Shown one piece after another: positions 13,079-59,538 of a stretch of 64,000 nt of DNA (position 1 is the stretch's first letter; every line of letters begins with the position of its first letter). The notes beneath the pieces are model-generated. The model saw only the letters and a list, made by a program, of their open reading frames with translations, did not search any database and had not been told where the DNA came from. The translations under genes and the position numbers were made by a program. The stretch is from contig JBCCEK010000003.1 of assembly GCA_039030295.1 (NCBI GenBank), forward strand, positions 180 to 64,179. Direction: 5' to 3'. This stretch comes from Myxococcota bacterium (GTDB lineage: Bacteria; Myxococcota_A; Polyangia; Polyangiales; Houyiibacteriaceae).

Positions 13079-13197
13079 ACGGACCTCCAAACAACGAATC
13101 AGGGGTTCGACGAGCGTACACCCCACGGCCGGGTCGGCCAAGGGCGGAGATCGAGCGACCTTGCTCCAAGAGCCGCCCGTTGGGGCCGAACCGAGCT

Positions 13198-23352: not shown

Positions 23353-23391
23353 TGTTGCATCAGAGCAAAAGTGTTTACGATTTACAACAAT
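23351..23391. promoter_or_regulatory. AT-rich divergent promoter with inverted repeats (candidate LysR site)
   Basis: ATTGTTG (23351-23357) / CAACAAT (23385-23391), with a nested TTGC-N6-GCAA (23355-23368). Located between the LysR gene and the divergent lipoprotein gene. Confidence 0.3.
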
Positions 23392-23442
23392 TTTCATCAC
23401 GAAAGAAACAATCTAAGGTCAGCTCTTGCAAGGAGGACTGAT

Positions 23443-23988
23443 ATGAACCCAATGCTTCATCCGAGGGGTCTTTCATCGCTCGCGGCCTGCTGGTCCCTAA
23501 CGCTCCTCGCGGGTTGCGGAGCGAGTCCGAGCGCCGGCGACACGCTGAGCACCGCCGCCGCCAGTCTTGCTGTCTCCGAGGTCCGCGAGGCGCTGCGTGA
23601 CTACGAGCGAGCGCTCAACCAAAGCGACGTCGACGCCATCATGCGCCTCTACGCCGACGACGCAGTGTTCATGGCGCAGCACAGGGAGCCGGCTGTCGGG
23701 GCTGAAGCGATCCGCGGTGCGTACGAAGCCGTGTTCGCGGAGATCGATCTGAACGTGGCGTTCGAAATCGACGAGGTGTCTATGTTGTCGCCGACGATCG
23801 CTCTGGCACGGACGCGCAGTACGGGTACGACCCGGGTTCTCCTTGCTGACGCTGAGGTCGAAGAAGGGAATCAAGAGTTGTTCGTGTGGGTACGCGACAG
23901 TGTGGATGGGCCTTGGAGGATCGGTCGATACATATTCTCGACCACGATGCCTCGTACACTAGGCTCGCCGGAGTCGACCTCGCGGTAG
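23443..23988 (+). CDS. SnoaL/DUF4440-like (NTF2 fold) lipoprotein
   Basis: Lipobox LLAGC. DVDAIMRLYADDAVFMAQH...WRIGRYIFS is typical of DUF4440/ketosteroid-isomerase-like folds. Confidence 0.6.
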   Translation: MNPMLHPRGLSSLAACWSLTLLAGCGASPSAGDTLSTAAASLAVSEVREALRDYERALNQSDVDAIMRLYADDAVFMAQHREPAVGAEAIRGAYEAVFAEIDLNVAFEIDEVSMLSPTIALARTRSTGTTRVLLADAEVEEGNQELFVWVRDSVDGPWRIGRYIFSTTMPRTLGSPESTSR

Positions 23989-28639: not shown

Positions 28640-29637
28640 TCAACAAACAAGTCAACCTTGCAGCCCGGCCGGAAGGCCTTCCCAAAGACTCAGACTGGTC
28701 GTTCGAGGAGACGCCGATACCCGAACCCGGAGACGGAGAGGTCCTCGTACGGATCACCCACGTGTCGCTTGATCCAGCCATGCGTGGATGGATGAACCCG
28801 GGCATGACGTACATCGAAGGCGTCGAGCTCGGCTCCGTGATGCGCGCGGGCACGGCGGGCATCGTCGCCAAGTCCAATGCGCCGGAGCTCGCCGTCGGCG
28901 ACGCCGTCGTGGGTGTGCAGGGAGTGCAGCAGTACGCCGTTGCCAAGCCCAAAGAGCTCCAGAAGGTCGATCCGTCGATCGCGCCGCTCGAGCGGTACCT
29001 CGGCGCCCTCGGCATGCCCGGGATGACGGCGTATTTCGGGCTCCTCGACGTAGGCAAGCCGAAGGAAGGGGAGACCGTCGTCGTGTCGGGCGCGGCCGGT
29101 GCCGTAGGAAGCGTGACGGGGCAGATCGCCAAGATCAAAGGCTGCCGCGCGATCGGGATTGCCGGCGGCCCCGAGAAGTGCGCTTACCTCGTCGACGAGC
29201 TCGGGTTCGATGGCGCGATCGACTACAAGAACGAGAACCTTCGCGCGCGGTTGAAGGAGCTTTGCCCTGATCGTGTGGATGTGTACTTCGACAATGTGGG
29301 TGGCGAGGTCCTAGACAGGGTCTTGGCGAGGCTCGCGATGCATGCCCGAGTCGTGATCTGCGGAGCGATTAGCCAATACAACAACAGGCGTTTCGCAGGA
29401 CCGAACAATTACATCGCGCTTCTGAATTCGCGCGCGCGGATGGAGGGGTTTGTCGTATTCGATTACGCGCGCGAATACGCAAAAGCTGCAGTCGAGATCG
29501 CCCAATGGATCACCGACGGAAAACTCAAGGTTCACGAGCAGGTGATCGAAGGGATCGACCAGTTCCCCGCGGCGATGCTCAAGCTGTTTTCGGGTGACAA
29601 GCGAGGGAAGCTCGTTCTAGCTGTCGCCGAAGGCTGA
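28636..29637 (+). CDS. NADP-dependent alkenal/enone reductase (PTGR1/YncB/CurA-type MDR)
   Basis: MINKQVNLAARPEGLPKDSDW..., VVSGAAGAVGS. ATGA overlap with the CCD stop. Confidence 0.85.
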   Translation: MINKQVNLAARPEGLPKDSDWSFEETPIPEPGDGEVLVRITHVSLDPAMRGWMNPGMTYIEGVELGSVMRAGTAGIVAKSNAPELAVGDAVVGVQGVQQYAVAKPKELQKVDPSIAPLERYLGALGMPGMTAYFGLLDVGKPKEGETVVVSGAAGAVGSVTGQIAKIKGCRAIGIAGGPEKCAYLVDELGFDGAIDYKNENLRARLKELCPDRVDVYFDNVGGEVLDRVLARLAMHARVVICGAISQYNNRRFAGPNNYIALLNSRARMEGFVVFDYAREYAKAAVEIAQWITDGKLKVHEQVIEGIDQFPAAMLKLFSGDKRGKLVLAVAEG

Positions 29638-35944: not shown

Positions 35945-37063
35945 CTACGTGCGGCGGACGGTGAGCTTGTCGGCCAGTTCCTCGAGCATTCCGAGCCCTT
36001 GCGGATTGAAGAGATCAGCACCTACTGCACAGCGAGCTTCGTCGCATAGCCCGGCAATCCTCAGCTCGAGTCGCTCAACGACCTCCGTTTCCCGGAGGCA
36101 TTGCTGTGCCAAGGCCAGCTCCTCGCTCGTGGCGTTGCGGTTCCCGAAGACCGACTCGACTGGCTGCCGAGTCGCCAGTTCGGTCGTGCTACGAAGCTCC
36201 GCCATGACACTGCTCAGCTTCCCGTGAGGGATGTCCATCCCGGGCTTGCCTGTGTCCTCCGCATCGCCGAGGGCTCCAAGCAGGTCGTCGCGGATCTGAA
36301 ACGCTTCGCCGATCGGGTTCGCCCAAGCGGTCAGTGCGGCGATCTGCTCCGCGGTCGGATTTCCGAGGAGTGCACCGAGGATGAGTGGACCTCTCACCGA
36401 GTAGCTGGTGGTCTTGAGGGCGTGCATTCGAGACACGTCTGGGTCGCCCGTGAGATCGAGTTGCTGACCGCAGTAGACCTGTTTTTGAAGCTCGATGAAG
36501 GCGCGCTGTGCGTCCGTCCACGATTGCATGGGAAAGGGCGCCTCGACGAAAAGCTCCCACGCATAGGTCGAAGCGAGGTCTCCCGCGAGAACGCCGAGTG
36601 CAGCGCCGAGATGCACGTCGTCGTGACGGTGTTGAAGACTCGCATGCACCGCCGCCCCTCCTCGACGTACTTCGTCTCCGTCCATCCAGTCGTCGTGGAT
36701 GAGCAGATAGCTCTGCAGCAGTTCGAGCGATGCGCTGAGGTCGACCAGTCGGTCCATCCCGTGCCCGGGACGGACGCATCGGTATCCGGCTGCGGCGACG
36801 GCAGGTCGGAGCCGCTTCCCGCCTCGCATGGTCAGCGCCTCGATCTCCTCCACCAACTCGAGCGTGGGCGGCGAGACGTTCTTCGTCTCACGGCGCTTGT
36901 CATCAAAGAACTCCGCAAGGTGCACGTCTACCTCGAGTCGCACGATCTGCAGCCAGTGCGTCGGTCGCGACCCGAGACGCGGGGAGTCCCCGGTCGATGC
37001 CGCGCGATCGAGTTCACGCTGGCGGTACTTGGGTACGACCTCGGTCAGTTGGGATGCTCTCAT
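35945..37063 (-). CDS. Polyprenyl diphosphate synthase, probable farnesyl diphosphate synthase
   Basis: First Asp-rich motif LLIHDDWMDGD, second FQIRDDLLG. Tyr lies five residues before the first motif. ATGA overlap with the cyclase stop. Confidence 0.8.
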   Translation of the reverse strand: MRASQLTEVVPKYRQRELDRAASTGDSPRLGSRPTHWLQIVRLEVDVHLAEFFDDKRRETKNVSPPTLELVEEIEALTMRGGKRLRPAVAAAGYRCVRPGHGMDRLVDLSASLELLQSYLLIHDDWMDGDEVRRGGAAVHASLQHRHDDVHLGAALGVLAGDLASTYAWELFVEAPFPMQSWTDAQRAFIELQKQVYCGQQLDLTGDPDVSRMHALKTTSYSVRGPLILGALLGNPTAEQIAALTAWANPIGEAFQIRDDLLGALGDAEDTGKPGMDIPHGKLSSVMAELRSTTELATRQPVESVFGNRNATSEELALAQQCLRETEVVERLELRIAGLCDEARCAVGADLFNPQGLGMLEELADKLTVRRT

Positions 37064-39036
37064 GACAGTCTCCGTGGGCTATCAGGACCTGCGTCCGCCC
37101 GGTGTTTGAGCGCGAGCGCCATGACCGGGAAGTACTGCCGGTACAGGCGGTAGTTGAGGAGGGCGGTCTCGAAGAAGACCCCCACGAATTCGTCGTCTCT
37201 CCAGAGGCCTGATGACTGCTGGCGTCGTTCAAGCCACGCGGCGGCCCTCTCGATGGCGTTCCGATCCGGTTCGTTGGCTTCGATGAGGGTGATCATCGCC
37301 CACGCGGTTTGAACCACCGAACCTTGCGACGCTTGCACGTAGCCCCGGCTCGGGCCGCTCGTGTAGTCCTCGCCCCAAGCGCCGTCGCTTCTTTGGTGTG
37401 AGAGGAGCCAACGGCAAGCATCGCGAACGTGAGCGTCGGTAGCGGGAACACCGGCTGCCAGCAACCCTCGAACGCCAAACATCGTCCCGTAGATGAAGTG
37501 CACGCCCCACGCGGCGTCCCAAGTGCCGTCGTTGTTCTGGACGCGTCGAAGAAGGTCACCTGCACGCGTGATCGCAGCGTCGAGGCGCACGCGCATGAGG
37601 TCCGGGTAGTGTCTTCGCAGGTCGCTTAGCGCCATCAGGCAAGAGGCCGTGCATTCGACGTACGAGCGCTCGGTCATGCAGCGTCCGAACATCTCAGCGG
37701 GGTTCATCCATTCGAGTGGGAATCGCGTCTTTGCGGGTTCGTAGCTTCCAAAACCCCCGTCGTGGTTCTGGCAGCGAAGGATGAAGCGTGCTGCCCTGGC
37801 GGCGTTCTCCTTGCCGATCGCCTCGGGCCGTGTCCGCAAGAGCCCGATCAACGCCTCGGCCGTGCAGTCGCTCACTGGCCAGCCGTGGCCGACTTCGGAG
37901 AAGCACCAACCGCCATTCGGTTGGATCCGATGGGCCGCCTCGTAGTCGTACGCTGCGGCGCCCACCTGTTGTGAGGCGAGGAACGCGGCGCTCCGCGAGA
38001 CGGACTCGCTGCAATCGACGTGCGCGACTTCCGAGAGCGCTTGGAGCGCGAACGCCGTGTCCCAACACACGCTTCCGGCTCCTGCGACGCGCGAGCCCTC
38101 GTTCGCGTCCTCCCAGAACCAATCTTCGAATCGGTCCGTCGCGCGCTCGAGGTGCGGGTCAGCCGGGTTCTCCGCCCACAGTGCCAGCATGATCAGAAGC
38201 CCGTTCACAGGCGAAAGACCGAGGTAATCGCTTGCGCGAAGATGGGCGCGCATGTCGGCGAGGAGACGTGTCGTGAGCGTACGGCGAAGCCGGCGCGAGT
38301 GAACTCGGTCGTAGCCGCGTGCGACGGCGAACACAGCGCGAAGCGCCGGCCCTGCCGCAAAGGGGGCGTCCTCAGGTCGAATGTCGTTGCGGTAGCGGGC
38401 GAATGAAACCCGAGCGAAGCGCCCCCCGTAGAGCTCGTTCTCGAGCTCGTCGACCACCGGCCCTCGCTCGGCGACGAAGCGCCTGCCGAACAGGACCGCG
38501 AGCCCAAGGTAGATCTGACGGGTGTGGCAGTAGTAGTTCGAAGGGTGCAGGGGCACCCACTCCGGGAGCGCCCACGCCTCGGGAACGATCGGGTTCACCC
38601 CGTCCCAGTCGTAGAGCCCAAGGGTCGCCAACCAGACTTTTCCCCAAGTCGGGATCCGCTCCACACGCTCTGAGGCGAAGAGGCGTCGCGCGTCTTCGAG
38701 CCAAGGCGTTTCGGCCGGGGCGCCCAGAATCCGTGCCGCGACGTACACCAACGTGGTCACGTAGAGGTTCCCGTCATCGTACGGGTGGAGCCCCCATAAA
38801 CCCGAGTCGTGCCGAGTGACCCTGAACTGGGTCAGGAGTCCCGCTCGTCGCTCATCACCAAGCTCCTGCTTCATGATGTGCGACGCGATCGCGTACTGGG
38901 CCGCGAGCATGGGGTTCCATACGCACTCGCCTTCCCAGCTCCCGTCGTCCCTTTGGAGGCGGATCAGCGCGTCGAGGCCTCGATCCAGAGGCGTCTGTGC
39001 GTGAATCGAAAGATGGGTTGTTGCCGCGGCAGGCAT
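37060..39036 (-). CDS. Oxidosqualene cyclase (lanosterol/cycloartenol synthase type)
   Basis: Catalytic GWPVSDCTAEAL (the OSC-type VxDCTAE, not the hopene-cyclase DxDDTA). WDTAFALQAL, and repeated QW-type motifs (e.g. RLQRDDGSWEG, RCQNHDGGFG, RVQNNDGTW, SHQRSDGAWGE). Start ATG 39036 lies 5 nt after the HMGR stop. The Arg-rich 217-aa ORF extension was rejected. Confidence 0.9.
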   Translation of the reverse strand: MPAAATTHLSIHAQTPLDRGLDALIRLQRDDGSWEGECVWNPMLAAQYAIASHIMKQELGDERRAGLLTQFRVTRHDSGLWGLHPYDDGNLYVTTLVYVAARILGAPAETPWLEDARRLFASERVERIPTWGKVWLATLGLYDWDGVNPIVPEAWALPEWVPLHPSNYYCHTRQIYLGLAVLFGRRFVAERGPVVDELENELYGGRFARVSFARYRNDIRPEDAPFAAGPALRAVFAVARGYDRVHSRRLRRTLTTRLLADMRAHLRASDYLGLSPVNGLLIMLALWAENPADPHLERATDRFEDWFWEDANEGSRVAGAGSVCWDTAFALQALSEVAHVDCSESVSRSAAFLASQQVGAAAYDYEAAHRIQPNGGWCFSEVGHGWPVSDCTAEALIGLLRTRPEAIGKENAARAARFILRCQNHDGGFGSYEPAKTRFPLEWMNPAEMFGRCMTERSYVECTASCLMALSDLRRHYPDLMRVRLDAAITRAGDLLRRVQNNDGTWDAAWGVHFIYGTMFGVRGLLAAGVPATDAHVRDACRWLLSHQRSDGAWGEDYTSGPSRGYVQASQGSVVQTAWAMITLIEANEPDRNAIERAAAWLERRQQSSGLWRDDEFVGVFFETALLNYRLYRQYFPVMALALKHRADAGPDSPRRLS

Positions 39037-39041
39037 CGGTC

Positions 39042-40250
39042 CTACTCCGCGGCGGCGATCTCGAATCGCCGTGCGTGCAGATTCATGTGCCCGCTCTGGA
39101 TCCCCTCGGACGCCAGTGCGGAGAGCGCGCCGAGGTTCTGCGCCAACCCCACGGCCGCCATCACCATCGCGAGCTCGCCTGCAGTGTCGACGTTGAGGAG
39201 CTTTCGGAGCACGCGAAGGGCGGGCTGGACCGAAGTAGACCCCCCGACTGTCCCCACGGCCATCGGTACTTCGATCTCGCCGTGGAGCATCCCGTCGACT
39301 TGCCACCAGCGTGTCAACGGTTCGTAGCGGCCGTGGCGGGCGGCGTAGGCGTGCGCGCCTGCTTCGAGCCCGCGCCAGTCGTTCCCGGTGGCGACGCCGA
39401 CCGCGTCGATCCCGTTCATGACGCCCTTGTTGTGCGTTGCCGCGCGGTAGGGGTCGACCGCCGCGAACTGATAGGCTTCGACGACCCCATGGGCAACTTC
39501 GGCGCCCGAGTGTCCGCGGCGTTCGAGAAGTTCTTCTTGAATCGCGCAGCTCGCCCGCGCCATTCGCCGATCGGACAGGTTGCTCAGGATCCGAAGACGC
39601 ACCCGGCCTCCCGTCAGCTCTTCGATGATCGGCGCGACGCCCTCGGCCATGTCGTTGACCAGGTTCGCGCCCATGGCGTCGCGGCAATCGACGAGCAGGT
39701 GAACGACCAGCATCGGCGGGTCTGAGTCGAGAATCCGCACTTCGAGCGACTTCGCGCCCCCGCGGCGCGCCACCATGTTGGGGTGACGGTCATTCGCGAC
39801 TTGCAGGATCCGGTCTGCCTGTCGTTCGATGGCATTGCGTGCTCCGAACGGGTCTGGCACTTCGAGAACCTGCACTTGCGCGATCATCAAGGACTCGCTC
39901 GCGGTCGCGGAGAAGCCACCCGACTCGCGGATCACACGGGCCATGTTGCTGGCCGCGGCGACTACCGAGGGTTCTTCGACGACCATCGGTACCACGTAGT
40001 CGCGCCCGTTGACCTGGAAGTTCAGCCCGAGACCCACGGGCATCTTGAGAACGCCGACGCAGTTTTCGACCATCTTGTCGGCGATCTCGGCGTCGGTCGG
40101 GTCTTCGCACCCGAGCGCAGCGAGGTCTTCTGGGTCTAGAGAGAAACGTTCCGCGAGTTGGTGATGGCGACCCGGAAGGTCAAGCCGATAGAACCCGGGA
40201 ATGCGAGAGGAGGGACGAAGCGGTGCGCGATGGCTTGCTCGATCGGTCAT
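39042..40250 (-). CDS. mvaA: HMG-CoA reductase, class II
   Basis: Near-colinear with the Pseudomonas mevalonii enzyme as recalled: VPMVVEEPSVVAAAS, DAMGAN, AAVDPYRAATHNKGVMNGIDAV, GLAQNLGALSALASEGIQSGHM. ATGA overlap with the squalene synthase stop. Confidence 0.95.
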   Translation of the reverse strand: MTDRASHRAPLRPSSRIPGFYRLDLPGRHHQLAERFSLDPEDLAALGCEDPTDAEIADKMVENCVGVLKMPVGLGLNFQVNGRDYVVPMVVEEPSVVAAASNMARVIRESGGFSATASESLMIAQVQVLEVPDPFGARNAIERQADRILQVANDRHPNMVARRGGAKSLEVRILDSDPPMLVVHLLVDCRDAMGANLVNDMAEGVAPIIEELTGGRVRLRILSNLSDRRMARASCAIQEELLERRGHSGAEVAHGVVEAYQFAAVDPYRAATHNKGVMNGIDAVGVATGNDWRGLEAGAHAYAARHGRYEPLTRWWQVDGMLHGEIEVPMAVGTVGGSTSVQPALRVLRKLLNVDTAGELAMVMAAVGLAQNLGALSALASEGIQSGHMNLHARRFEIAAAE

Positions 40251-41323
40251 GCGGCATCCATGGTGCGGGGCCCGCCGTTGGTGACCGAGTTGGCCGCCAT
40301 CAGTCGAGCGACAGGAGTCCAGAGCGACTCGTAGTCCGAGCGGAGGAGGGCATCGTCTTGGTAGCTCGCGGCGCACCGAGCGATGACCTCTTCCACTTCC
40401 GCGCGACTCACTTTGACTTCTTGGCCATCGGTGAACATCGCGTCGTTCCCGTAGGCGAGGACGACAGTCCTCACGGCGAGCCACAGAGGCAACAAGCAGA
40501 ACAGTCGGATCTCTCGATGCTCCGCCGGGATCGTCAGTGCGTACTCGAGCGCGCTGTCCAGTTTGGTGCGCGCGAGGTGGAACATCGGAAAGACCGCTCG
40601 ATGTGCAGCCGCGAGCTGATCGGGATCGAGAAGATCACGACTCCGCAGTCCTTGCTTTCGGCAAAGGGACCGAGGCACGAACGACCATCCGCGCTGCATG
40701 TCGTCGGTGATGTCTTTCAGGATGTTGACGAGCTGAAGGCCCGTACCGAACGCCTCGGCGTGCTCGTACAGCGCGGCAGACAGCTCCGATTCGGGTGACG
40801 TACCCATCTCGGCGAGGAAGAGCTCGGTCAGCATGTGACCCACCGTGCCTGCGACGAAGTAACAGTACCGTTGCAGATCGTCGCTCGTTGTTGGAGCGAC
40901 CACACCGTCGGCGTCGGCGCGTCGATGGCTGTAGATCTCCATCCCATGAGCCATCTCATCGACCCAACGAACCACGGCGTCGCGCATCGGGGCCGGCACG
41001 GTATCGAGAACGGCGATCACGCGATCGATTCGGCGGCACAGTTCGATCTCTTCGACTGGGGACCCGGCGACATCGTTCCATTGATGCCCAAACTCCGACG
41101 GATCGACCGTTCCGGCGAGCACGCCGTGGAACGCGCGGTAGCGCACACTTCGCTCGTCGAGAGAGAACGAGGCGTTGTCTTCGACCGCATCGACGATTCG
41201 GCAGAGCAGGTATCCGCACGTCACGGCCCTCCTCAGGTCTCCAGGTAGCACCTCGATCGGTCGGGAGAATGTCCGGGACACTTCCCGGAGACTGCCTGCG
41301 CAGAAGTCCCATTCAGCTGACAT
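40247..41323 (-). CDS. Squalene synthase (farnesyl-diphosphate farnesyltransferase)
   Basis: SRTFSRPI, YLLCRIVDAVED (DxxED), and NILKDITDDMQRGWSFVP (second Asp-rich box). Single-enzyme SQS type. Confidence 0.9.
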   Translation of the reverse strand: MSAEWDFCAGSLREVSRTFSRPIEVLPGDLRRAVTCGYLLCRIVDAVEDNASFSLDERSVRYRAFHGVLAGTVDPSEFGHQWNDVAGSPVEEIELCRRIDRVIAVLDTVPAPMRDAVVRWVDEMAHGMEIYSHRRADADGVVAPTTSDDLQRYCYFVAGTVGHMLTELFLAEMGTSPESELSAALYEHAEAFGTGLQLVNILKDITDDMQRGWSFVPRSLCRKQGLRSRDLLDPDQLAAAHRAVFPMFHLARTKLDSALEYALTIPAEHREIRLFCLLPLWLAVRTVVLAYGNDAMFTDGQEVKVSRAEVEEVIARCAASYQDDALLRSDYESLWTPVARLMAANSVTNGGPRTMDAA

Positions 41324-42692
41324 GCTTTTCCTCCTCGACGAAGACCTCAGTTGGGTCGTCAGGGCGTGCCCAGGATTCGGGTGCTGCCCACGACACCGAC
41401 CGTTGCCGCATCAAACTCTGGCTCGGGTGAACGCTCGCCCACGGCCACCGAAGCCAGCCCGCGAGCTCGCGCGCCGTGGCGGCGTCAGAAAGAAGCACCC
41501 CGGCGCCGGCTCGCAGTGCAACGCGTGAGAAGGCCCGAACGAAATCGACTCGGCTCGTCGTAGCCGCGCCAAGCAGATCCATGGTTCGGTTGCGTTGCAT
41601 CGAGCTCGCGCGCCAGGTGCTGAAAATCGAGTCGCGAATCGCGATCGCCCCCACGTCCTCGCGAGCAAACGCCTGGTAAATCGCGTTCGAGAGGAGTTCC
41701 GGCACGTAGCTTTCGGCAGCCCGCTGTGCGGCATACGAGCTCAGCGAGCGGGCTCCGGCGAGGGCCTCTGCATCGAGGAGCGACATCGTGATGCCCATGG
41801 CGGTGAGCGGGTGGAACACCCCGGCCGCATCGCCGACGAGCGCCACCCCGCGGTCGGTTTGGTAGCGTCGCGGGCGGAACGTATTCGCGGCCCATCCGAT
41901 CGACGCATCTCCGGCGCCGCGACGGACGCCTTCGCGGAGCGCAGGTGGGAGCACCTCCGCGTACGACTTCCAGATCCAATCGTGGCTCTTCGTGCTTGCG
42001 CGCGCATCGTGCGGAACGTCGATGCACATCCGTACGGCGTTGTCCCCGATGCGATAGGCCAGCGCCGGCCCTGGTCCGCCCGTGATCACATGCCCGTACT
42101 CTTCGAAAGGAAGTTCGGTATCGCGCACGACCAGTCCGGCCATGACCGAGATCGAAACCTTCTCGCTGACTGCACCATCACCGAGGATCTTGCGCGCCGA
42201 GCGCCCCGTTGCGATGACGACGAGAGGTGCGTTGACCACGCGCGACTTAGACCTCTGAGTCAGCGTCACGAAGCGGCCCCGGACCTCGCTCGCGCGCACC
42301 CCTTCGAGATAGTCGACGCCTCTCGTCTGACTCACGCGCGCGCGCAGATGGGTCACCAAGGTTGCGTGTTCGCAGGAGAGACCGCGCTCGCCGCCGCCAT
42401 ACTCGAGGGTGATCGGACCGAGGCCATCGTTTGGAAACACGACGAAGCCGCGCCCGGTAGCGCCGTGCTCCAGTCCATCTAAAAGTTCGAGATTACGAAG
42501 GATTCTAGCCCCTTCGGGATGCACCCACTCCCCAGCGAAGCGCCGCGCTGCGTTCGGGTTCGACTCGACCAGGAGAACGCTCGCACCTCGCCGAGCGAAC
42601 GCCGCGGCGGTTGCGCAGCCCGCCGGTCCTGCACCGATAACCACGGTGTCGTACGCCGATCGAATGTCGCCCAAGTCGAACGTTGGCTGCAC
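41313..42692 (-). CDS. Squalene monooxygenase (epoxidase), FAD-dependent
   Basis: DTVVIGAGPAGCATA dinucleotide fold, GEWVHPEG, LVGDAAGVFHPLTAMGITMSLLDA. GTG start. Overlaps the SQS start by 11 nt. Confidence 0.85.
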   Translation of the reverse strand: MQPTFDLGDIRSAYDTVVIGAGPAGCATAAAFARRGASVLLVESNPNAARRFAGEWVHPEGARILRNLELLDGLEHGATGRGFVVFPNDGLGPITLEYGGGERGLSCEHATLVTHLRARVSQTRGVDYLEGVRASEVRGRFVTLTQRSKSRVVNAPLVVIATGRSARKILGDGAVSEKVSISVMAGLVVRDTELPFEEYGHVITGGPGPALAYRIGDNAVRMCIDVPHDARASTKSHDWIWKSYAEVLPPALREGVRRGAGDASIGWAANTFRPRRYQTDRGVALVGDAAGVFHPLTAMGITMSLLDAEALAGARSLSSYAAQRAAESYVPELLSNAIYQAFAREDVGAIAIRDSIFSTWRASSMQRNRTMDLLGAATTSRVDFVRAFSRVALRAGAGVLLSDAATARELAGWLRWPWASVHPSQSLMRQRSVSWAAPESWARPDDPTEVFVEEEKHVS

Positions 42693-45918: not shown

Positions 45919-46950
45919 TCAGGCGGGTCGCTGGGCGACGAAGAAGTAGTTCGGCGTGAAGATTCCGAGCTCTCCGCCGGCGATCAACGACTCGGCGGCG
46001 TTCCCAAGCATCCGGCTGACTTCGGTCGAGCCCGGAGGCGCGATCCGAAGCCGCTCGAGGGTACGAATCGTCCGGCGTGCGATCGCACGACCGACACGCC
46101 CGCGCCGGATGGCGATCGGATTGCTGAGCTCGCCCTTGAGCGGCAAGTACCAAGGCGTCCGCGCATCGGACCTCGTTGCCGCGTCGTGGCTTTCGACGAT
46201 CTCGAAGCCGGCCTCGCGGAGTGCTTCGAGAACCTCTGGGACGGTCGCAATGTCGGGCAGGCTGTCGCCCTCTTCGATGCCCTTCTTGATCTTCTGGTGA
46301 TGCGCATTCGTGGGGTCGAAGGCGTCCGTCATGCACCACTCATACGCGGCGAACTTGCCACCCGGCTTGAGAGTCCTGAGGATCTGCTTGAACACGGCGA
46401 CCTTGTCCGGGGCATGGCACGTCGCCTCGAATGCGTACGCGGCGTCGTACGTCTCGTCAGCGACACCGAGGTTCATGAAATCGTCTTTGAACCCAGAGCA
46501 CTGGCCGGCGAGCCCGGCTTTCTGGTTGTACTGCTCGAGCTTGGTCAGCTGGTAGTCGTTGTTGTTCACGCCTTCGATCGTGGCACCCGAGAAGCGCGCG
46601 ATGGCCCGCATGGGCCCACCGACCCCGCAGCCCACGTCGAGGACCTTCATGCCCTCGTTGAGCCCCAGTCGGAGCGCAAAGAAATGCTCGGAGCGAGCCA
46701 AGGACGCATCGAACGATTCACCGTCGAAGCGGGGTGCGAAGTGAAAGGACTGGCCCCAGCCGTGCTCGTAGAAATCGGTGACCAGATCGTAGTAGTGATT
46801 GATCATGGTCGTGTAGTCGGCCTTGCGCGTCTCGACGTTCGCGCCTGACGACTCGTCGAAGAAACCGAGGTAGTCGCGAATGGCGCCGCGGACGGTGCTG
46901 CGCGTCCGCGCGTCGGAGTAGAATTGCGTTACGGCTTGCTCTTGAGTCAT
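45919..46950 (-). CDS. Sterol C-24 methyltransferase (ERG6/SMT family)
   Basis: YYDLVTDFYEHGWGQSFHFA (SMT region I), VLDVGCGVGGP (SAM site), YAFEATCHAP (region III), 343 aa. Confidence 0.9.
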   Translation of the reverse strand: MTQEQAVTQFYSDARTRSTVRGAIRDYLGFFDESSGANVETRKADYTTMINHYYDLVTDFYEHGWGQSFHFAPRFDGESFDASLARSEHFFALRLGLNEGMKVLDVGCGVGGPMRAIARFSGATIEGVNNNDYQLTKLEQYNQKAGLAGQCSGFKDDFMNLGVADETYDAAYAFEATCHAPDKVAVFKQILRTLKPGGKFAAYEWCMTDAFDPTNAHHQKIKKGIEEGDSLPDIATVPEVLEALREAGFEIVESHDAATRSDARTPWYLPLKGELSNPIAIRRGRVGRAIARRTIRTLERLRIAPPGSTEVSRMLGNAAESLIAGGELGIFTPNYFFVAQRPA

Positions 46951-50107: not shown

Positions 50108-51112
50108 ATGGGAACAAAACCGACTGGCCTACTCGCGTTCTGGCGAAACTACGATCGTAAGACCTACGTCAAGGCGGCGGTACTTGCCGATCGCCTCGGA
50201 TACGACTCGTTCTGGCTTCCCGAGGTCTGGGGCTACGAGTCGTTCACGCTTCTCACCGAGATCGCTTTGAAGACGAAGCGCATCAAGTTGGGCACCGGCA
50301 TCATCAACGTGTTCAGTCGGTCGCCCGCCCTGATCGCCATGCAGGCGGCCACCCTGGACGAGGTCAGCGGCGGAAGGTTCATTCTCGGGGTCGGCACGAG
50401 CGGCAAGCGCGTGATCGAAGGGCTTCACGGACGTGACTTCGAGAAACCACTCACGCAGACGCGAGACGTCATACGAGTCGTCAAGACGCTCCTTGACGGA
50501 CGGCCCATTTCGGAGTCCGACGCGAAGCTCCGGCACTACCGACCGTTCAAGCTCGACTTCGAGCCAAGGCGAAGAAAGATCCCGATCTATGTAGCGGCGC
50601 TTAAGCAGAAATCGGTCACGAGTATCGGGGAACTTGCCGACGGGTGGATGCCGATCTTCTGGCCGTACGATCGTCTCGAAGACGGACGGGCTTGGATCGC
50701 CGATGGGGCTGCCAAGTCTGGGCGAGATCCGGCGGAGATCGTGACCGCGCCCTTCACGACGGTCATCCCTGTGCCGGGCCGCGGCGCCTCGAAGAAGGCA
50801 CGCGAAATTATCGCGTTCTACATCGGCGGCATGGGTGAGTACTATAAGGAGCTGCTCACCGGCTTCGGCTACGGTGAGGAGTGTAACGAAGTCGAGCGGC
50901 TGTACCGTGACAAGTCGACTCGAGCGCAGGCTCTTGACGCGGTGACCGACGAGATGGTCGAACGACTGACGATCTCAGGCGATCCCCTCCACTGCCGCAA
51001 AGAGCTCGGGAGACGGCGCGGGCTTGGTCTGCAAGAGCCGATCATCAACTTACCGCCAGGCATCCCGTGGCCGGCGATGGCCGCCTTCATTACATCGCTT
51101 GCGCGGGCCTGA
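50108..51112 (+). CDS. Luciferase-like (LLM class) flavin/F420-dependent oxidoreductase
   Basis: [20 protein letters not shown]...[18 protein letters not shown]...[11 protein letters not shown]. Start moved to ATG 50108. Confidence 0.8.
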
Positions 51113-51149
51113 CGACTCCACAGCCGACAAGTTGGTGTATGCTGCACCC

Positions 51150-52088
51150 ATGTCTCCCGTCGAGGCGCCCTTCGCGAAGGGGTGGTACATGGTTTGCTGG
51201 AGCAACGACCTCGAGCGAGGCGCGACCTTGCCGCTCCGTTACTTCGCCAAGGACTTCGTGTTGTTCCGAGGGGAGAGTGGCCGCGCCACACTCCTCGACG
51301 CGCATTGCCCGCACCTCGGTGCGCACCTCGGTCACGGAGGCTGTGTCAAGGGTGACGATATCGTTTGCCCGTTTCATGCGTGGCGGTTCTCGCCCGAAGG
51401 TCGCTGTATCGAGGTCCCCTACGCGAGCCGCATTCCACCGAAAGCAGCCCTCCGGCAGTATCCGGTTTCGGAACACAGCGGGATGATCTTTGCCTACTTC
51501 GATGAAGAGGGGGTCGTCCCCGACTACGAAGTACCGCCGATTCACGAGCTGGACGATCCCAACTGGACTCCGCTCGAGATGAGTGAGATCCAGATCGCCA
51601 CCCAGCCGCGTGAGGTCATCGAGAACGTCGCGGACGTTGCGCACTTTGGCCCGGTTCACCACCAGACGATCGATGAGTTCGAGATGATCATCGATGGGCC
51701 AAGGGCCACTCAGAGAACGATTGGCAGAGGGGGGACGCTCGACGGGAGACCGATACCGGTCGAGTCGGTCGCGACCTATCACGGACCGGCCGTGCAATTC
51801 ACGAGGCTGATGTGGGCCTACGACATGGTCCTGGTGAACGCCCATGTGCCCATCGACCACGAGGCGCTCGTCCTTCGGTTCGGCGTGACGCTCCGCAAAC
51901 GAGCGGGCGAGAACGCGGGGCGTGACGTGATTCTGCAGCACGTCGCGGCAGCGCGCGACGGTTACTTCCAAGATGTCGCCATCTGGGAGCACAAGCGATG
52001 GCGCGATCGACCCACCCTCGTTGAGGGAGACGGGCCGATCGGCGAGATCCGGAAGTGGTACCGGTCATTTTTCGCTGAAGCATCTTGA
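51150..52088 (+). CDS. Rieske [2Fe-2S] non-haem-iron oxygenase (KshA/Neverland/SdmA-like single-component alpha subunit)
   Basis: Rieske CPHLGAHLGHG...CPFHAWRF. Mononuclear iron motif ENVADVAHFGPVHH (E-x3-D-x2-H-x4-H). Start moved to ATG 51150. Confidence 0.85.
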   Translation: MSPVEAPFAKGWYMVCWSNDLERGATLPLRYFAKDFVLFRGESGRATLLDAHCPHLGAHLGHGGCVKGDDIVCPFHAWRFSPEGRCIEVPYASRIPPKAALRQYPVSEHSGMIFAYFDEEGVVPDYEVPPIHELDDPNWTPLEMSEIQIATQPREVIENVADVAHFGPVHHQTIDEFEMIIDGPRATQRTIGRGGTLDGRPIPVESVATYHGPAVQFTRLMWAYDMVLVNAHVPIDHEALVLRFGVTLRKRAGENAGRDVILQHVAAARDGYFQDVAIWEHKRWRDRPTLVEGDGPIGEIRKWYRSFFAEAS

Positions 52089-54647: not shown

Positions 54648-55607
54648 TCAGCCGTAGGTCGCTTCGAGGGCGGCGACGAAGGCATCGAGTTGGTCCGCCG
54701 GAAGCGCGTTGATCCCGGCTGCAGCGGCCCGTCCCCCGCCGGTCGGGAACTGCCGACACAGCGTGTCCGCCCCGCGCTTGTCGTCGAGCGGAGCCCGCAC
54801 GCTCACAAGGTACGTTCCATCGGCGCGTTCCGTGAGCACCGCATGCGCGCGGGACGGCGTGCGGTTCGCCAGCTCGTTGCCATACACGCCAGAGACGCGG
54901 CGTGCCCAGGGCTCGTCCGGCAAGATGACGACCGAAGTCGCATCGTCTTGCCTTGCCGGCTCGACTGAGGCCGCCGCGGCCATGTCCTGTCGGTAGCCTG
55001 TCTCCAGCGCCTCGAACGTCTTCGGCGCCTCACTCACGAAGGCGAACGGCGTCGGGAACGGACTCACCAGACGAAAGAGCTCATCCGGCGCGAAGTGAAG
55101 GTCCTCGAGTGAGGAACCGTATCCGTTGTAGTTGATGCAAGTCCCAAGCGTGTCGAGCAACGCGAGCTGGGCCTCGGTGAGATCGAGGGGCGCGGCAAGG
55201 GCGCGTGCCGTCTCCTTAAGGTTGTCGCCGAAAGCGCCGGTGATCGCCCACTCGACGTAGGCCCCCCCGAGGCGGCCGTTCACCAGCAACGATGTGCATA
55301 CATTGGGATCAGTGTCGATGATCGTTTCAAGTTGGGGGTGCTCTGGAACCTCCCCCGCGAAGTGGTGGTCGACGTAGAAGACACTTGCCCCGACCGCGAG
55401 GGCTTGCTCGACGCCGCCGCGGTTCTTGTCGAAGCTGACATCGAGCACGGTCACTTGGTCGCCTTCTTTTGTACCTGCCTTGGCAACCAGTGCGATGTCG
55501 CGCTTCACCCCGGTGACGAGTCGACTGTCACGCGGTTCGGCGTTGTGCAGTTGCGCGAGGGCACAAATCCCATCCGCATCACCGTTGAAAATGTCGATCC
55601 GTGCCAT
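54648..55607 (-). CDS. DHH-family phosphoesterase-like protein
   Basis: N-terminal FNGDADGICA (DxD motif) and YVDHHF (DHH motif). Confidence 0.65.
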   Translation of the reverse strand: MARIDIFNGDADGICALAQLHNAEPRDSRLVTGVKRDIALVAKAGTKEGDQVTVLDVSFDKNRGGVEQALAVGASVFYVDHHFAGEVPEHPQLETIIDTDPNVCTSLLVNGRLGGAYVEWAITGAFGDNLKETARALAAPLDLTEAQLALLDTLGTCINYNGYGSSLEDLHFAPDELFRLVSPFPTPFAFVSEAPKTFEALETGYRQDMAAAASVEPARQDDATSVVILPDEPWARRVSGVYGNELANRTPSRAHAVLTERADGTYLVSVRAPLDDKRGADTLCRQFPTGGGRAAAAGINALPADQLDAFVAALEATYG

Positions 55608-55616
55608 GGGCGGCTC

Positions 55617-56567
55617 CTACTGAGCTTCGACGCGGTTGTCCAACGCGCCGAGGTCGATCGACCCGTCGTCCGTGGAGATCGTCGCCCGCACTCGATCCCC
55701 AGGCTGCAAGTAACGGCCGCCCGCCTCTTGCAGTTCGGTGAACCGCTGCCATTTCTTCGCGCGTGGGAGCTTCGCGAGCATGGCGTTCTGTTCGGCAGAG
55801 CGCTGCATGGCGACCCCGGACGGCGTGCCGCTCGCGATCAAATCGCCAACGCGTAGGTCTTGCACCTCGGAGAGTTCGGTGAGGGTCTCTCCGGGCTTGT
55901 AAACCATATTTTCACAGACCGCGTCCTGCCTCAGCTCCTCGTTGACGTACATCCGCAGGCGTAGCGTGTGCCAGCGTTCCCGGATCTGGTCATCGACGAG
56001 GGTGAGCCAAGGCCCTGTCGGTCCGAACGTGCGGAAGCTCTTTCCCTTGTAGTACTGGAGTTCCGACAGCTGCACGTCGCGGGCGCTCACATCGTTGTGG
56101 ACGACAAGCGCACCGATCGCGTCCGGCAGCGTCGAGTTCTCGAACGTCTCCGGGGCAACGATGTCCCTGGCAAGAACGAGACCAAGCTCGACTTCGTAAT
56201 CGAGCAAGCGAACCCGTGCAGGCCTCACGATCGGATGGTTCGCACCACACAAACAGGAGGAGGCCTTCCTGAACCACATGTTGAACGTCTTCGAATCTGG
56301 GTCGACGCCCGTCTCTCGGGTGTGCGCGCGGTAGTTCTTCGCCAGACAAACGACCTGTTGGTTTCGGGTCACCGGTGACAGGAACTCGACGCCGTCGAGG
56401 GCGGTTGTCGCCCCTGTGCGGGCCGCGGCCTCCGCGATCGCGTCGGTGCCACTGCGCAGCAAGGCGCCGGTGGTCTCGAAATCGCCCTCGACCCAGGACA
56501 GGCCGTCCTTTCGGACCACCGCCCACCGAGGACCGCTGTCTTGCTGAACTCGAGCAACGCGAATCAT
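55617..56567 (-). CDS. Fumarylacetoacetate hydrolase (FAH) family protein
   Basis: VVCLAKNYRAH, DYEVELGLVLARD, GDLIASGTPSGV are FAH-fold hallmarks. Confidence 0.85.
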   Translation of the reverse strand: MIRVARVQQDSGPRWAVVRKDGLSWVEGDFETTGALLRSGTDAIAEAAARTGATTALDGVEFLSPVTRNQQVVCLAKNYRAHTRETGVDPDSKTFNMWFRKASSCLCGANHPIVRPARVRLLDYEVELGLVLARDIVAPETFENSTLPDAIGALVVHNDVSARDVQLSELQYYKGKSFRTFGPTGPWLTLVDDQIRERWHTLRLRMYVNEELRQDAVCENMVYKPGETLTELSEVQDLRVGDLIASGTPSGVAMQRSAEQNAMLAKLPRAKKWQRFTELQEAGGRYLQPGDRVRATISTDDGSIDLGALDNRVEAQ

Positions 56568-56641
56568 GAACGAGTCTTAGCGCGTTGGCGTCGCCTGCGC
56601 CTGCGCCCTGTTGGCCGCATGTGTGCTAGGTTCGGTCCGTC

Positions 56642-57304
56642 ATGACCCAATACGTGTTCGAACCGACAGACCTACAGCGCATCGTGAAGATGCACCTCCA
56701 TGTGCCTCTGGACCGGCGCTTCGATCGGATCGCCCACACGCTGCATGCCGTGTACGGAGAGCACATCCATCCGGGCCGCGAGTGGATCTGGAGCAACGCC
56801 GGCGGGATCATGTGCTCGATGAGCGTGCTCCACACCTCGCCGAAGGAGTACCTCTTGTTCTGCGGAACGGCCGTGGGGTCCGAAGGACACAGCGGGCGGC
56901 ATCGTGCCGAACTCTACGACATCGTGATCAATGGCGAGCTTCAGACCTTCAAGCCCGACCAGTTCGCACCACGGACCCTCCAGCCCGGCGAAGTCTCGCA
57001 CCTGCCTCGATTGACGACCAACGGCAGCCACTTGAGCCGCGAGTGCTGGCTGCTCGAGTATGCGCGCGGGAACATCATGTCGATGTTTCCCTTTGCGCTT
57101 GGGGACACGGTGTTCAGCACCCAGGACCTGACTGATTTGGGCAAGACGATGGTCCACTCCACCAAGCTCATGCTGTCGGAGGCCAAGCTTGCGGTCAGGA
57201 GCCGTTTCGGACGCGGCAGCCTGCCCGCGCCTCGGCTCGACCTCATCACCGATCCAGCGCCCGCGGCCCCGAAGCCGTCGAGCGACGACACGTCCCTTAA
57301 TTGA
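56642..57304 (+). CDS. ERG2/sigma-1-receptor family protein (putative sterol C-8 isomerase)
   Basis: Colinear with human sigma-1 receptor from about residue 35, as recalled: YVFEP..., NAGGIMCSMSVLHTSPKEYLLFCGTAVGSEGHSGRH.AELYD, WLLEYARG, FALGDTVFSTQD. The equivalents of Asp126 and Glu172 are conserved. No N-terminal TM helix. Confidence 0.85.
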   Translation: MTQYVFEPTDLQRIVKMHLHVPLDRRFDRIAHTLHAVYGEHIHPGREWIWSNAGGIMCSMSVLHTSPKEYLLFCGTAVGSEGHSGRHRAELYDIVINGELQTFKPDQFAPRTLQPGEVSHLPRLTTNGSHLSRECWLLEYARGNIMSMFPFALGDTVFSTQDLTDLGKTMVHSTKLMLSEAKLAVRSRFGRGSLPAPRLDLITDPAPAAPKPSSDDTSLN

Positions 57305-57447: not shown

Positions 57448-59538
57448 ATGAAAGACCTCACCACCTACCGGAACATCGGCATCTTCGCGCACGTGGACGC
57501 CGGCAAGACCACCACGACCGAGCGCATCCTCAAACTCACCGGCAAGATTCACAAAATCGGTGAGGTCCATGATGGGGCGGCGACGACTGACTTCATGGAG
57601 CAGGAGCAGGAGCGAGGCATCACGATTCAGTCGGCGGCGACCACCTGTTTTTGGGACGGCCACCAGCTGAACATCATCGACACGCCCGGCCACGTCGACT
57701 TCACGATCGAGGTCTATCGGTCCCTCAAGGTGCTCGATGGCGGGGTCGGTGTGTTTTGCGGCTCCGGCGGCGTCGAGCCGCAGTCCGAAACCAACTGGCG
57801 TTATGCCAACGAATCCGAAGTTGCGCGCCTGATCTTCGTGAACAAGCTCGATCGCGCGGGCGCCGATTTCTACCGCGTTGTCGACCAGATCAAAGACGTG
57901 CTCGACGCGAAGCCGCTCGTCATGGTGCTGCCTATCGGTACCGAGGCGGAGTTCGTCGGGGTCGTCGATCTGCTCACCCAGAAAGCGTACGTGTGGGACG
58001 ATTCGGGCCGACCCGAGAACTTCGAGGTGAAGGACGTACCCGAAGACATGGCGGAGCTCGTCGAGAAGTATCGCACCGAGCTCATCGAAGCTGCGGTCGA
58101 ACAAGACGATGACGCACTCGAACAGTACCTCGAGGGCAATGAGCCCGACGTCGACACGATCAAAGCATGCATTCGGAAGGGAACACGCGACCTCGTCTTC
58201 TTCCCAACGTTTTGCGGTTCAGCGTTCAAGAACAAGGGCGTCCAACAGGTTCTCGATGGCGTCGTGGCTTACCTCCCGAACCCGACCGAGGTGCCGCCGC
58301 AGCCCGAGATCGACCTCGAGGGCAACGAGACCGGCAAGTTCGCCGACGTCGACCCGACCGGCCCGGTCCGCGCGCTCGCTTTCAAGATCATGGAGGACCG
58401 ATTCGGCGCGCTGACCTTCACGCGAATCTACTCCGGCACGATCAACAAGGGCGACACCCTGGTCAATACGTTCACTGGGAAGAACGAACGCGTCGGGCGT
58501 ATGGTCGAGATGCACGCCAACGACCGTACGATCGTCGAGACCGCGCAAGCTGGAGACATCGTTGCGATGGTCGGGCTGAAAGACGTTCGGACAGGACATA
58601 CCCTCGCCGACGCGAAGGACCCCGCGACCTTGGAGCCGATGGTCTTTCCGGACCCCGTCATCTCCGTGGCGGTCTCGACGAAGGACAAGGCGAACAGCGA
58701 GAAGCTCAGCACTGCGCTTGGCAAGATGGTCGCCGAAGACCCGTCGTTCCACGTCGAGGTCGACCAGGAGTCCGGCGAGACCATCCTCAAGGGGATGGGT
58801 GAGCTCCATCTCGACATCAAGGTCGACATCTTGCGTCGGAGTCACGGCGTCGACGTGCAGGTCGGTGCGCCTCAGGTGGCCTACCGCGAAACCGTCACTT
58901 CGATGATCGAAGACAGCTACACGCACAAGAAGCAGACCGGTGGGTCAGGCCAGTTCGCGAAGATCGACTACCGAATCGAGCCTGCCGAGGCCGGCGAGGG
59001 CTTCGTCTTCGAATCGAAGATCACCGGCGGCAACGTGCCCAAGGAGTTCATTCCCGCGGTCGACAAGGGTTTCAAACAGATGATGGAGACCGGTCCCCTT
59101 TGCGGTTTCCCGTTGCTCGACTTCAAAGTGACGCTGCTCGATGGCGGCTACCATCCGGTCGACTCCTCGCAGATGGCGTTCGAAACGGCGGCCAAGGCGG
59201 CGTTTCGTCAGAGCATGCCGAAGGCCGGCCCCCAGCTTCTAGAACCGATCATGAAGGTGGACGTGTTCGTTCCCGACGCCAACGTCGGCGACGTCATCGG
59301 CGACCTCAACCGCCGACGCGGTATGATTGGCGCGCAGGAAAAGGGCCACACCAACGTCCGCATCAAAGCGGATGTCCCGCTGAGCGAGATGTTCGGCTAC
59401 ATCGGCGACCTTCGCTCCGCGACCTCAGGTCGTGGCCAGTTCTCGATGGAGTTCAGCCACTACTCCGCCGTTCCGCGCCACATCCTCGAGAAGGTCCAAG
59501 CCGAAGTCGCCGAACGCGAAGCCGCCAAGAAAAAGTAG
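57448..59538 (+). CDS. fusA: Translation elongation factor G
   Basis: [34 protein letters not shown]. Full five-domain length (696 aa). Confidence 0.97.

Follow-up and report, generated by a model that had tools for sequence, protein, structure and literature searches.

Homologs of the fungal C-8 sterol isomerase ERG2 have been recognized in bacteria since 2009, when an ortholog was described in Plesiocystis pacifica along with homologs in mycobacteria (Desmond and Gribaldo, 2009; PMC2817430). 'C-8 sterol isomerase' homologs are also reported from Enhygromyxa salina, Calothrix, methanotrophs and many bacteria that contain an oxidosqualene cyclase (OSC), and the C-8 isomerase step has been assigned to ERG2-family homologs in sterol-producing bacteria, including the cholesterol-producing E. 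salina (Lee et al., 2023; PMC10202945). ERG2 and the sterol C-24 methyltransferase (SMT), a gene pair proposed to lead from zymosterol-type to episterol-type sterols, have been discussed as possible transfers from myxobacteria to eukaryotes (Hoshino and Gaucher, 2021; PMC8237579). Functional SMTs are encoded in sterol gene clusters of marine myxobacterial metagenome-assembled genomes (MAGs) (Brown et al., 2023; PMC10070321), and a C-14 reductase and a C-8 isomerase have been described in Methylotuvimicrobium (PMC13277303, 2026). Here we consider a 220-residue member of this family that is encoded at 56642..57304 on the forward strand (stop codon included) of a window of 64 kb, the whole stretch analyzed, from contig JBCCEK010000003.1 of a Myxococcota bacterium. 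Bacterial ERG2 homologs are thus already known and annotated, and the window protein is a fairly ordinary member. We propose, at a probability of about one half, that it would act as a peripheral-membrane sterol delta-8/delta-7 isomerase serving the sterol pathway encoded on its own contig.

For the sigma-1 receptor (S1R; human SIGMAR1, 5HK1; Xenopus laevis, 7W2B/8W4B), the roles of the triad Glu172/Asp126/Tyr103, a transmembrane helix at residues 8-32 and a membrane-associated face of the C-terminal domain have been described (PMC6736580), and bacterial homologs are not discussed in the S1R literature that we searched. S1R and the window protein belong to the same Pfam family and share fold, triad (Glu139, Asp93 and Tyr70 in the window protein), both C-terminal helices and about 35-40% identity. 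However, S1R is a ligand-regulated protein of the endoplasmic reticulum with an N-terminal transmembrane helix, whereas the window protein is bacterial, lacks this helix, carries an extra C-terminal tail of 30 residues and is encoded beside a sterol-synthesis module. The fungal ERG2 proteins (Hanseniaspora P0182, Atractiella P0229) are also of the same family, with 34% identity over 197 residues in the case of yeast ERG2. They have in common with the window protein the NAGG, EY..FGTA.G.EGH.G, LE.A.G and ST.D blocks, the equivalent of Glu172 and, presumably, the reaction and the pathway partners (SMT/ERG6 upstream), but they possess the N-terminal transmembrane helix and carry Phe at the position of Asp93, with the acids 2-3 positions earlier (SNDYF/ADDYF). 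The animal and plant delta-8/delta-7 isomerase EBP/HYD1, in turn, shares the proposed reaction and the same pharmacology of carbocation-mimicking amines, but it has an unrelated fold with four transmembrane segments and no sequence similarity, and is an analog only. ERG2 and EBP are regarded as non-homologous enzymes for one step (Desmond and Gribaldo, 2009; PMC2817430). The described bacterial homologs (E. salina DB30_04104, Polyangium aurulentum WP_136917579, Calothrix, Nostoc and Methylotuvimicrobium) resemble the window protein in being anchorless and in starting with the same (Y/F)(V/I)F(E/D)P block, and such anchorless forms occur in sterol-producing bacteria (PMC10202945; PMC13277303). 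The E. salina protein is 41% identical to the window protein; it and the Polyangium protein differ in their length of 185-187 residues, in lacking the C-terminal tail and in their AEDYF/TNDYF motif.

The window protein is a bona fide member of the ERG2/sigma-1 family. Its ERG2_Sigma1R domain (residues 2-180; 56645..57181, forward strand), which spans two N-terminal helices, the cupin-like beta-barrel and the start of the C-terminal helices, matches positions 20-205 of the 210 in Pfam PF04622 (E=5.2e-52; 176.7 bits against a cutoff of 21), and no NCBIfam model matches in a scan of the 220-residue protein. Sigma-1 receptors are the only matches in a PDB-wide phmmer search, human S1R (5hk1) being found with E=1.3e-28 in an alignment of residues 3-170 with chain positions 38-207; identity to human S1R is about 40%. 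A preliminary description of this DNA had proposed homology over almost the whole length of the protein and had quoted four shared blocks, all of which are present in the alignment with 5hk1: NAGGIM opposite NAGGWM of S1R, EYLLFCGTAVGSEGHSGR opposite EYVLLFGTALGSRGHSGR, EYARG opposite EYGRG, and FALGDTVFSTQD opposite FALADTVFSTQD. The structural check that it had suggested, superposition of a predicted structure on S1R, points the same way. An AF2 model built with a 68-sequence alignment of the clade (alignment A1) has a pLDDT of 85.7 and a pTM of 0.84, compared with a pLDDT of only 33.7 for single-sequence AF2, and the model shows the S1R fold, with two short N-terminal helices, a cupin-like beta-barrel around a buried hydrophobic pocket and two C-terminal helices. 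In a Foldseek comparison with the PDB, the top 42 matches are all S1R chains (TM 0.77-0.80, rmsd 1.7-2.3 A, about 190 columns), among them 8w4b, 7w2b and 5hk1 at TM 0.78-0.80 and E about 1e-18, and the generic cupins that come after them have a TM below 0.4. Crystal structures of S1R with progesterone and with DHEA-S are among the best structural matches.

Both acids that bind ligand or carbocation, which had been listed as retained on alignment by eye, are kept in a proper alignment. Asp93 (codon GAC, 56918-56920, forward strand) corresponds to S1R Asp126 and is at least 90% conserved in the clade, and Glu139 (codon GAG, 57056-57058, forward strand) corresponds to Glu172, the acid that binds ligands and carbocation mimics, and is invariant in the clade. 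Tyr70, the equivalent of S1R Tyr103, is invariant in the 68-sequence alignment, and His120, the equivalent of S1R His154, is kept in a MAFFT alignment. Other parts of the pocket differ from S1R, with W89, Y120 and F107 replaced by I56, H87 and C74, substitutions that are fixed in the clade, and the GxxxG of S1R reads GxxxC (G54-C58). At the S1R trimer interface 10 of the 19 listed residues are identical, nine of these ten being invariant in the clade, and it is plausible from this conservation that the window protein forms a homotrimer. The numbering of the human S1R sequence in the MAFFT alignment, the family tree and the trimer-interface comparison agrees with the 5hk1 alignment.

The absence of the N-terminal transmembrane helix and the start at the YVF block, both noted in the preliminary description, withstand closer inspection. 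The open reading frame (ORF) has a strong coding signal (GC3 0.83 vs GC2 0.46) that resembles other genes of this 64%-GC contig. An in-frame TAG at 56627-56629 lies 12 nt upstream of the ATG with no start codon in between, and six orthologous loci agree in the ATG and in the codons that open the gene, whereas the DNA 5' of the ATG diverges in the six-locus alignment. Thus, the called N-terminus is correct and a hidden N-terminal helix is ruled out. The first residue corresponds to S1R position 32-34, and the 220-residue protein has no transmembrane segment elsewhere: the top 19-residue Kyte-Doolittle mean anywhere in it is 0.79, compared with roughly 1.6 for a transmembrane helix. The ERG2 ORFs of two related loci (L009 and L010) are longer at the N-terminus, but the extra length is an artefact of masked N runs and the true proteins begin MSTYIFHP..., in the same way as the window protein.

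The missing anchor is the usual bacterial architecture and no special feature. Among 1.84 billion cluster representatives, searched exhaustively with HMMER, 652 family members were found at E<=1e-3. When the best 150 were classified by their N-terminus, 65 proved to be full length from the (Y/F)(V/I)F(E/D)P block without any extension, 46 had a hydrophobic helix, 29 had an extension without a clear transmembrane helix (several of these resembling signal or lipoprotein signal peptides) and 10 were truncated. Anchorless examples come from Nostoc sp. DSM 114161 (193 residues), Polyangium aurulentum (WP_136917579, 187 residues, named 'ERG2 family protein'), E. salina (DB30_04104, 185 residues, beginning MSFIFEPD...), a Spirochaetales MAG and a Candidatus Hermodarchaeota MAG. 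As a separate observation, P0128, P0161, P0236, P0142 and P0163 carry N-terminal signal-peptide or lipoprotein-like stretches (for example MKNSAIILSTILSLSIAFTGC...), and the origin of one of them, a Bdellovibrionota MAG, suggests that proteins of the ERG2/S1R fold may be exported in predatory bacteria.

The lack of an anchor does not imply a soluble protein, and the suggestion that the window protein could provide a minimal soluble model of the sigma-1 fold is doubtful. The two C-terminal helices (residues 145-189; 57074..57208, forward strand), equivalent to alpha4/alpha5 of S1R and modeled by AF2 at residues 145-160 and 163-189, form a putative membrane-associating face. Their mean hydrophobicity of 0.51 and -0.02 compares with 0.43 and 0.14 in S1R, and the hydrophobic moments are similar. 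Since these membrane-facing helices are kept and are about as hydrophobic as those of S1R, a soluble state is unlikely, and the protein is probably a peripheral or monotopic membrane protein, which would fit a sterol substrate. The helices are followed by a clade-specific tail (residues 190-220; 57209..57301, forward strand; from alignment A1 and a tail alignment) that neither S1R nor fungal ERG2 nor the E. salina homolog possesses. The tail contains the motif P-R-L-D-L-I (57230-57247; clade consensus (P)(R/N)L(D/E)(L/A)(I/L)). P197 of this motif does not vary in alignment A1, and L199 is conserved to at least 90%. Across the clade it often ends in ...LN or ...VN, it is polybasic (KRNGRANVN) in a subgroup that shares about 50% identity with the window protein, and its residues 190-210 are modeled with a pLDDT of about 82.

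The residue at the Asp126 position divides the family. SGR(Y/H)xA(E/D)xxD is read in 77 of 103 aligned representatives, including S1R and the window protein, and (S/T)G(R/V)(F/H)xADDYF, in which the acids lie 2-3 residues earlier, in 20 of 103, including the fungal ERG2 proteins P0182 and P0229 and the anchorless Polyangium and E. salina proteins. The other two members of the triad are more uniform, with E at the Glu172 equivalent in 93 and Y at the Tyr103 equivalent in 100 of these 103. The RAELYD motif of the window protein has the S1R arrangement and not the fungal ADDYF type, and both motif types are found as anchorless proteins in Myxococcota. Because fungal ERG2 and the E. salina protein carry Phe at this position, the Asp/Glu pair cannot tell an isomerase from a binding protein; it marks an S1R-like site geometry that is probably ancestral. 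In a rough neighbor-joining tree, crude and used for grouping only, the window protein falls into its own anchorless clade apart from the Phe-type clade, and orthology to the fungal/E. salina type is not established. Another protein deserves mention in its own right, namely P0293 (229 residues, 'ERG2 family protein') from a MAG of the Asgard archaeon Candidatus Hermodarchaeota. It lies in the cluster of P0126, a protein of the Asp type that lacks a clear anchor, and, unless it is a contaminant of the MAG, it may bear on how eukaryotic sterol enzymes arose.

In the databases the window protein agrees at every residue with an NCBI entry, 'hypothetical protein AAF436_00920 [Myxococcota bacterium]'. 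The name 'ERG2 family protein' is given to a protein of 86% identity, and JGI uses 'C-8 sterol isomerase' for many metagenomic homologs of 215-220 residues, there being more than 200 full-length homologs of this size. No cultured named relative of the clade was identified, the close matches all being MAGs or metagenomes, and the clade of 216-220 residues with the S1R-type dyad is so far known exclusively from uncultured Myxococcota-type MAGs and metagenomes. In a species-representative genome set, relatives were found at 11 loci, 10 in MAGs labelled Myxococcota, Polyangiales, Myxococcales or delta-proteobacterial and one in a genome labelled only as an uncultured bacterium. Loci that encode relatives are denoted L001 and so on where they need to be told apart.

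What might such a protein do? Squalene epoxidase (SQE) and OSC, the co-occurrence of which is expected for a bacterial sterol C-8 isomerase, are encoded on the same contig. The preliminary description had placed the gene 10 kb from the sterol module, and the nearest clear sterol gene, a sterol C-24 methyltransferase homolog (45919-46950, reverse strand; Pfam Sterol_MT_C 1.4e-20 plus methyltransferase domains), indeed lies 9.7 kb away. In the scenario that we propose, the window protein would sit, probably as a homotrimer, on the cytoplasmic face of the inner membrane by way of the hydrophobic face of its C-terminal helices. A delta-8 sterol would be drawn from the bilayer into the barrel, where acid/base catalysis would shift its double bond to delta-7: Glu139, kept in place by Asp93 and Tyr70, would protonate the double bond and stabilize a carbocation-like state at C-8, and the C-7 proton would then be lost. 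The enzyme would act downstream of OSC and alongside SMT, both encoded 10-20 kb away, and would yield delta-7 sterols of the episterol or lathosterol type. The missing helix is compatible with an enzymatic role, since the E. salina, Polyangium aurulentum and Nostoc forms are anchorless as well.

Several points weigh against this proposal. The window protein appears to fall outside the fungal ERG2/E. salina subfamily, with AELYD in place of ADDYF/AEDYF, and by sequence it is about equidistant from S1R (35-40%), yeast ERG2 (34%) and the E. salina protein (41%). S1R, whose site geometry it shares, has no known isomerase role. The gene lies outside the sterol operon and its closest conserved neighbors are housekeeping genes. 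Moreover, the 64-kb window encodes neither CYP51 nor a C-14 reductase nor any clear SdmA/SdmB; judged from these 64 kb only, the supply of a C-14-demethylated delta-8 substrate is not shown. Finally, the literature that we searched contains no biochemical test of any bacterial ERG2-family protein.

An alternative is that the window protein does not catalyze a reaction at all, but binds sterols or lipids in the manner of S1R, as a sensor, carrier or chaperone in which a sterol or amine lipid would be held via Glu139/Asp93 and not isomerized. This is the main rival to the proposed isomerase, even if we regard it as unlikely. Its appeal lies in the dyad AELYD...LEYARG, which is of the S1R type and not the fungal/E. 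salina ADDYF type, in an identity to S1R (about 40% with MAFFT) that matches the identity to any ERG2, in the progesterone- and DHEA-S-bound S1R structures among the best fold matches, in the clade-fixed changes of the pocket (W89 to I56, Y120 to H87, F107 to C74) and in the housekeeping neighborhood of the gene outside the sterol operon. However, a bacterial receptor of the S1R type is without precedent, whereas a genome that makes sterols needs a C-8 isomerase for anything past delta-8 sterols. The Asp type is the majority form of the family (77/103) and occurs in many prokaryotic lineages, so that it is probably ancestral and not specific to receptors. In addition, steroid-ring oxygenase genes directly upstream of related ERG2 genes suggest a metabolic operon. 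A doubtful extension of the binding scenario is that the clade of 216-220 residues represents a sigma-1 receptor of prokaryotes. Its members would bind sterols at the membrane periphery and serve in regulation or transfer, and the tail, in place of the N-terminal helix, would tether the protein or bind a partner. If true, an S1R-like ligand-binding function beyond ERG2 catalysis would be present in sterol-making bacteria, and a helix-free homolog about 40% identical to human S1R would be at hand for biophysics.

The oxygenase genes themselves deserve attention, as the gene had been described as isolated between an FAH-family gene and fusA. These immediate neighbors are as stated, but the isolation is overstated, since a KshA-type Rieske oxygenase and a cytochrome P450 are encoded a few kilobases upstream. 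The Rieske protein, a member of the steroid-ring oxygenase family (51024..52088, forward strand, 4.6 kb upstream; Pfam Rieske and KshA_C, 2.6e-47), matches the 3-ketosteroid 9alpha-hydroxylase KshA (PDB 4qdc) over its full length with E=1.6e-54. It was also considered as SdmA, but rejected with 70 bits against a cutoff of 600 and its full-length likeness to KshA, and the Rieske genes beside ERG2 in L015 and L010 met the same outcome. In more distant relatives, KshA-type Rieske genes lie 6 bp upstream of the ERG2 genes in L015 (5589-6569) and L016 (2348-3328) and about 0.5 kb upstream in L010 (8433-9485), and FA_hydroxylase genes (ERG3/ERG25 superfamily) lie near ERG2 in L015 and L017. No adjacent KshA-type Rieske gene is found in L012 and L018, and other relatives likewise lack such neighbors. 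These recurrent steroid-ring-type oxygenases are the best evidence from gene context for steroid-like substrates of the ERG2 homolog, and the Rieske and ERG2-family genes may form a steroid-ring oxygenase/isomerase pair. The P450 gene (52114..53487, reverse strand; Pfam) lies 3.2 kb upstream of the ERG2 gene and has orthologs in synteny with ERG2 in L001, L002 and L007 (74-94% identity), while in L017 a p450 gene is found at the equivalent position by Pfam only. Its best PDB matches, with about equal scores, are CYP120 (2e-36) and CYP51 (about 1e-32 to 1e-34), at only about 115-129 bits. The possibility that it is the missing CYP51 was rejected, its helix I reading AAHDTTTS and not the CYP51 signature.

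With such neighbors, the window protein could catalyze a different reaction on the sterol nucleus, together with the Rieske protein and the P450 in the remodeling of steroids, possibly of exogenous origin. Candidate reactions would be a shift from delta-7 to delta-8(14) or another allylic shift, or the opening or rearrangement of an oxidized intermediate. The co-localization of ERG2 with a KshA-type Rieske gene in three arrangements (4.6 kb in the window, about 0.5 kb in L010, 6 bp in L015/L016) speaks for such a function, as does the retention of the P450 ortholog in L001, L002 and L007 (with L017 by Pfam only), the P450 not being CYP51 nor the Rieske protein SdmA. ERG2-type isomerases have also been raised as candidates for the formation of eukaryotic 8(14)-sterols (PMC13277303). 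However, the Rieske proteins of the three arrangements are mutually only 33-39% identical and may not be orthologs, L012 and L018 have no adjacent Rieske gene, and chemistry of this kind is not documented for the family. We consider this scenario slightly less likely than a non-catalytic binder.

That the gene is an artefact, be it a eukaryotic contaminant in the bin, a pseudogene truncated by loss of an N-terminal exon or helix, or a miscalled start, might be suspected of a family first described in eukaryotes and a product without the eukaryotic helix, but it is hardly credible and was rejected on synteny, composition and dN/dS, given the host-like codon composition, bacterial synteny in at least six loci from independent assemblies, strong purifying selection, the upstream stop and conserved ATG, and the wealth of full-length homologs. 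The ERG2 gene is native, selected and bacterial, since its codon composition is host-like, its bacterial synteny extends over six loci of Myxococcota-type MAGs and metagenomes and its dN/dS is low (0.01-0.14 against four orthologs, indicating purifying selection). The order DHHA1 (reverse strand), ERG2 (forward strand), fusA, pterin-4a-carbinolamine dehydratase (PCD) and P-type ATPase is kept in L001, L002, L003, L012 and L017, and L007 keeps the DHHA1/ERG2/PCD/P-type ATPase neighborhood without fusA. The most persistent syntenic neighbor is the divergent DHHA1-domain gene (54648..55607, reverse strand; Pfam), found in all six of these loci, while the genes next to ERG2 in the window are the FAH-family gene on its 5' side (55617-56567, reverse strand) and fusA on its 3' side (57448-59538, forward strand). 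An element TGTGCTAnGTT (56622..56632, forward strand), recognized as conserved columns of the six-locus alignment 10-20 nt before the ATG, is common to the window and L001, L002, L003, L007 and L012, and in the window it spans the in-frame TAG. No Shine-Dalgarno sequence precedes the ERG2 start in these six, and a promoter and terminator consensus scan at the ERG2 gene gave no sigma-70 site and no terminator. It is possible that the element is an extended -10 box that would give a leaderless or very short-leader mRNA.

The core sterol module of the window (37060..42692, reverse strand; Pfam) comprises OSC (37060-39687; TIGR03463, 669 bits, below the cutoff of 851 bits), HMG-CoA reductase (39042-40484), squalene synthase (40247-41323) and SQE (41313-42692), all on the reverse strand. 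Pfam and NCBIfam scans add a polyprenyl synthase (35945-37063) and, elsewhere in the window, a GHMP-family kinase of the mevalonate-pathway type, a diphosphomevalonate decarboxylase, an HMG-CoA synthase and a type-2 IDI-like gene. The same scans identify a permease, an amidase and an F420/LLM oxidoreductase after the sterol methyltransferase and before the Rieske gene, and a gene for a MASE11 protein between the P450 and DHHA1 genes. The OSC ORF as listed (875 residues) shares about 645 nt with the HMG-CoA reductase ORF. Since its cyclase domains start near residue 232, translation of OSC probably begins about 230 codons after the first possible start.

Other genes of the window may also bear on sterols or isoprenoids. 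A short-chain dehydrogenase/reductase of the 3beta-HSD/epimerase family (4358-5437, forward strand) is weakly similar to HpnA and SdmB (85 and 63 bits, far below the cutoffs) and is a possible sterol C-3/C-4 processing enzyme. A wax-ester synthase/DGAT acyltransferase fused to a C-terminal SCP2 sterol-transfer domain (11309-13141, reverse strand; TIGR02946, 467 bits) is a candidate steryl-ester synthase. An NTF2/SnoaL-like protein of the SgcJ/EcaC family is encoded at 23371-23988 (forward strand), and a bacterial 8,14-sterol reductase reported in uncultured Myxococcota is an NTF2-family protein (PMC13277303, 2026). Finally, a carotenoid-cleavage dioxygenase of the RPE65 family (27188-28639, forward strand; E=8.6e-120) adjoins a curcumin-reductase-like enoate reductase (28399-29637), and the two make up an apocarotenoid-type module a few kilobases upstream of the mevalonate/sterol cluster.

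A single contig of an uncultured, marine-type myxobacterium thus holds the mevalonate pathway, squalene synthase, SQE, OSC, a sterol C-24 methyltransferase and an ERG2-family gene. An 'extended' gene set of this kind has been discussed for the origin of eukaryotic sterol synthesis (PMC8237579), and bacterial sterol methyltransferases have been discussed in connection with sterane biomarkers (PMC10070321). The presence of the ERG2-family gene will not surprise a specialist, and its interest lies in the biochemistry and in the split into two subtypes, not in the missing anchor. A naturally helix-free S1R homolog could nevertheless ease expression for structural and ligand work, although it is probably still membrane-associated. 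Myxococcota hold both a fungal-like ERG2 subtype with Phe, as in E. salina, and an S1R-like subtype with Asp, as in the window gene, a split that goes unmentioned in the literature that we searched. It is relevant to the timing of the divergence of ERG2 and S1R, which may have preceded or followed any exchange between bacteria and eukaryotes.

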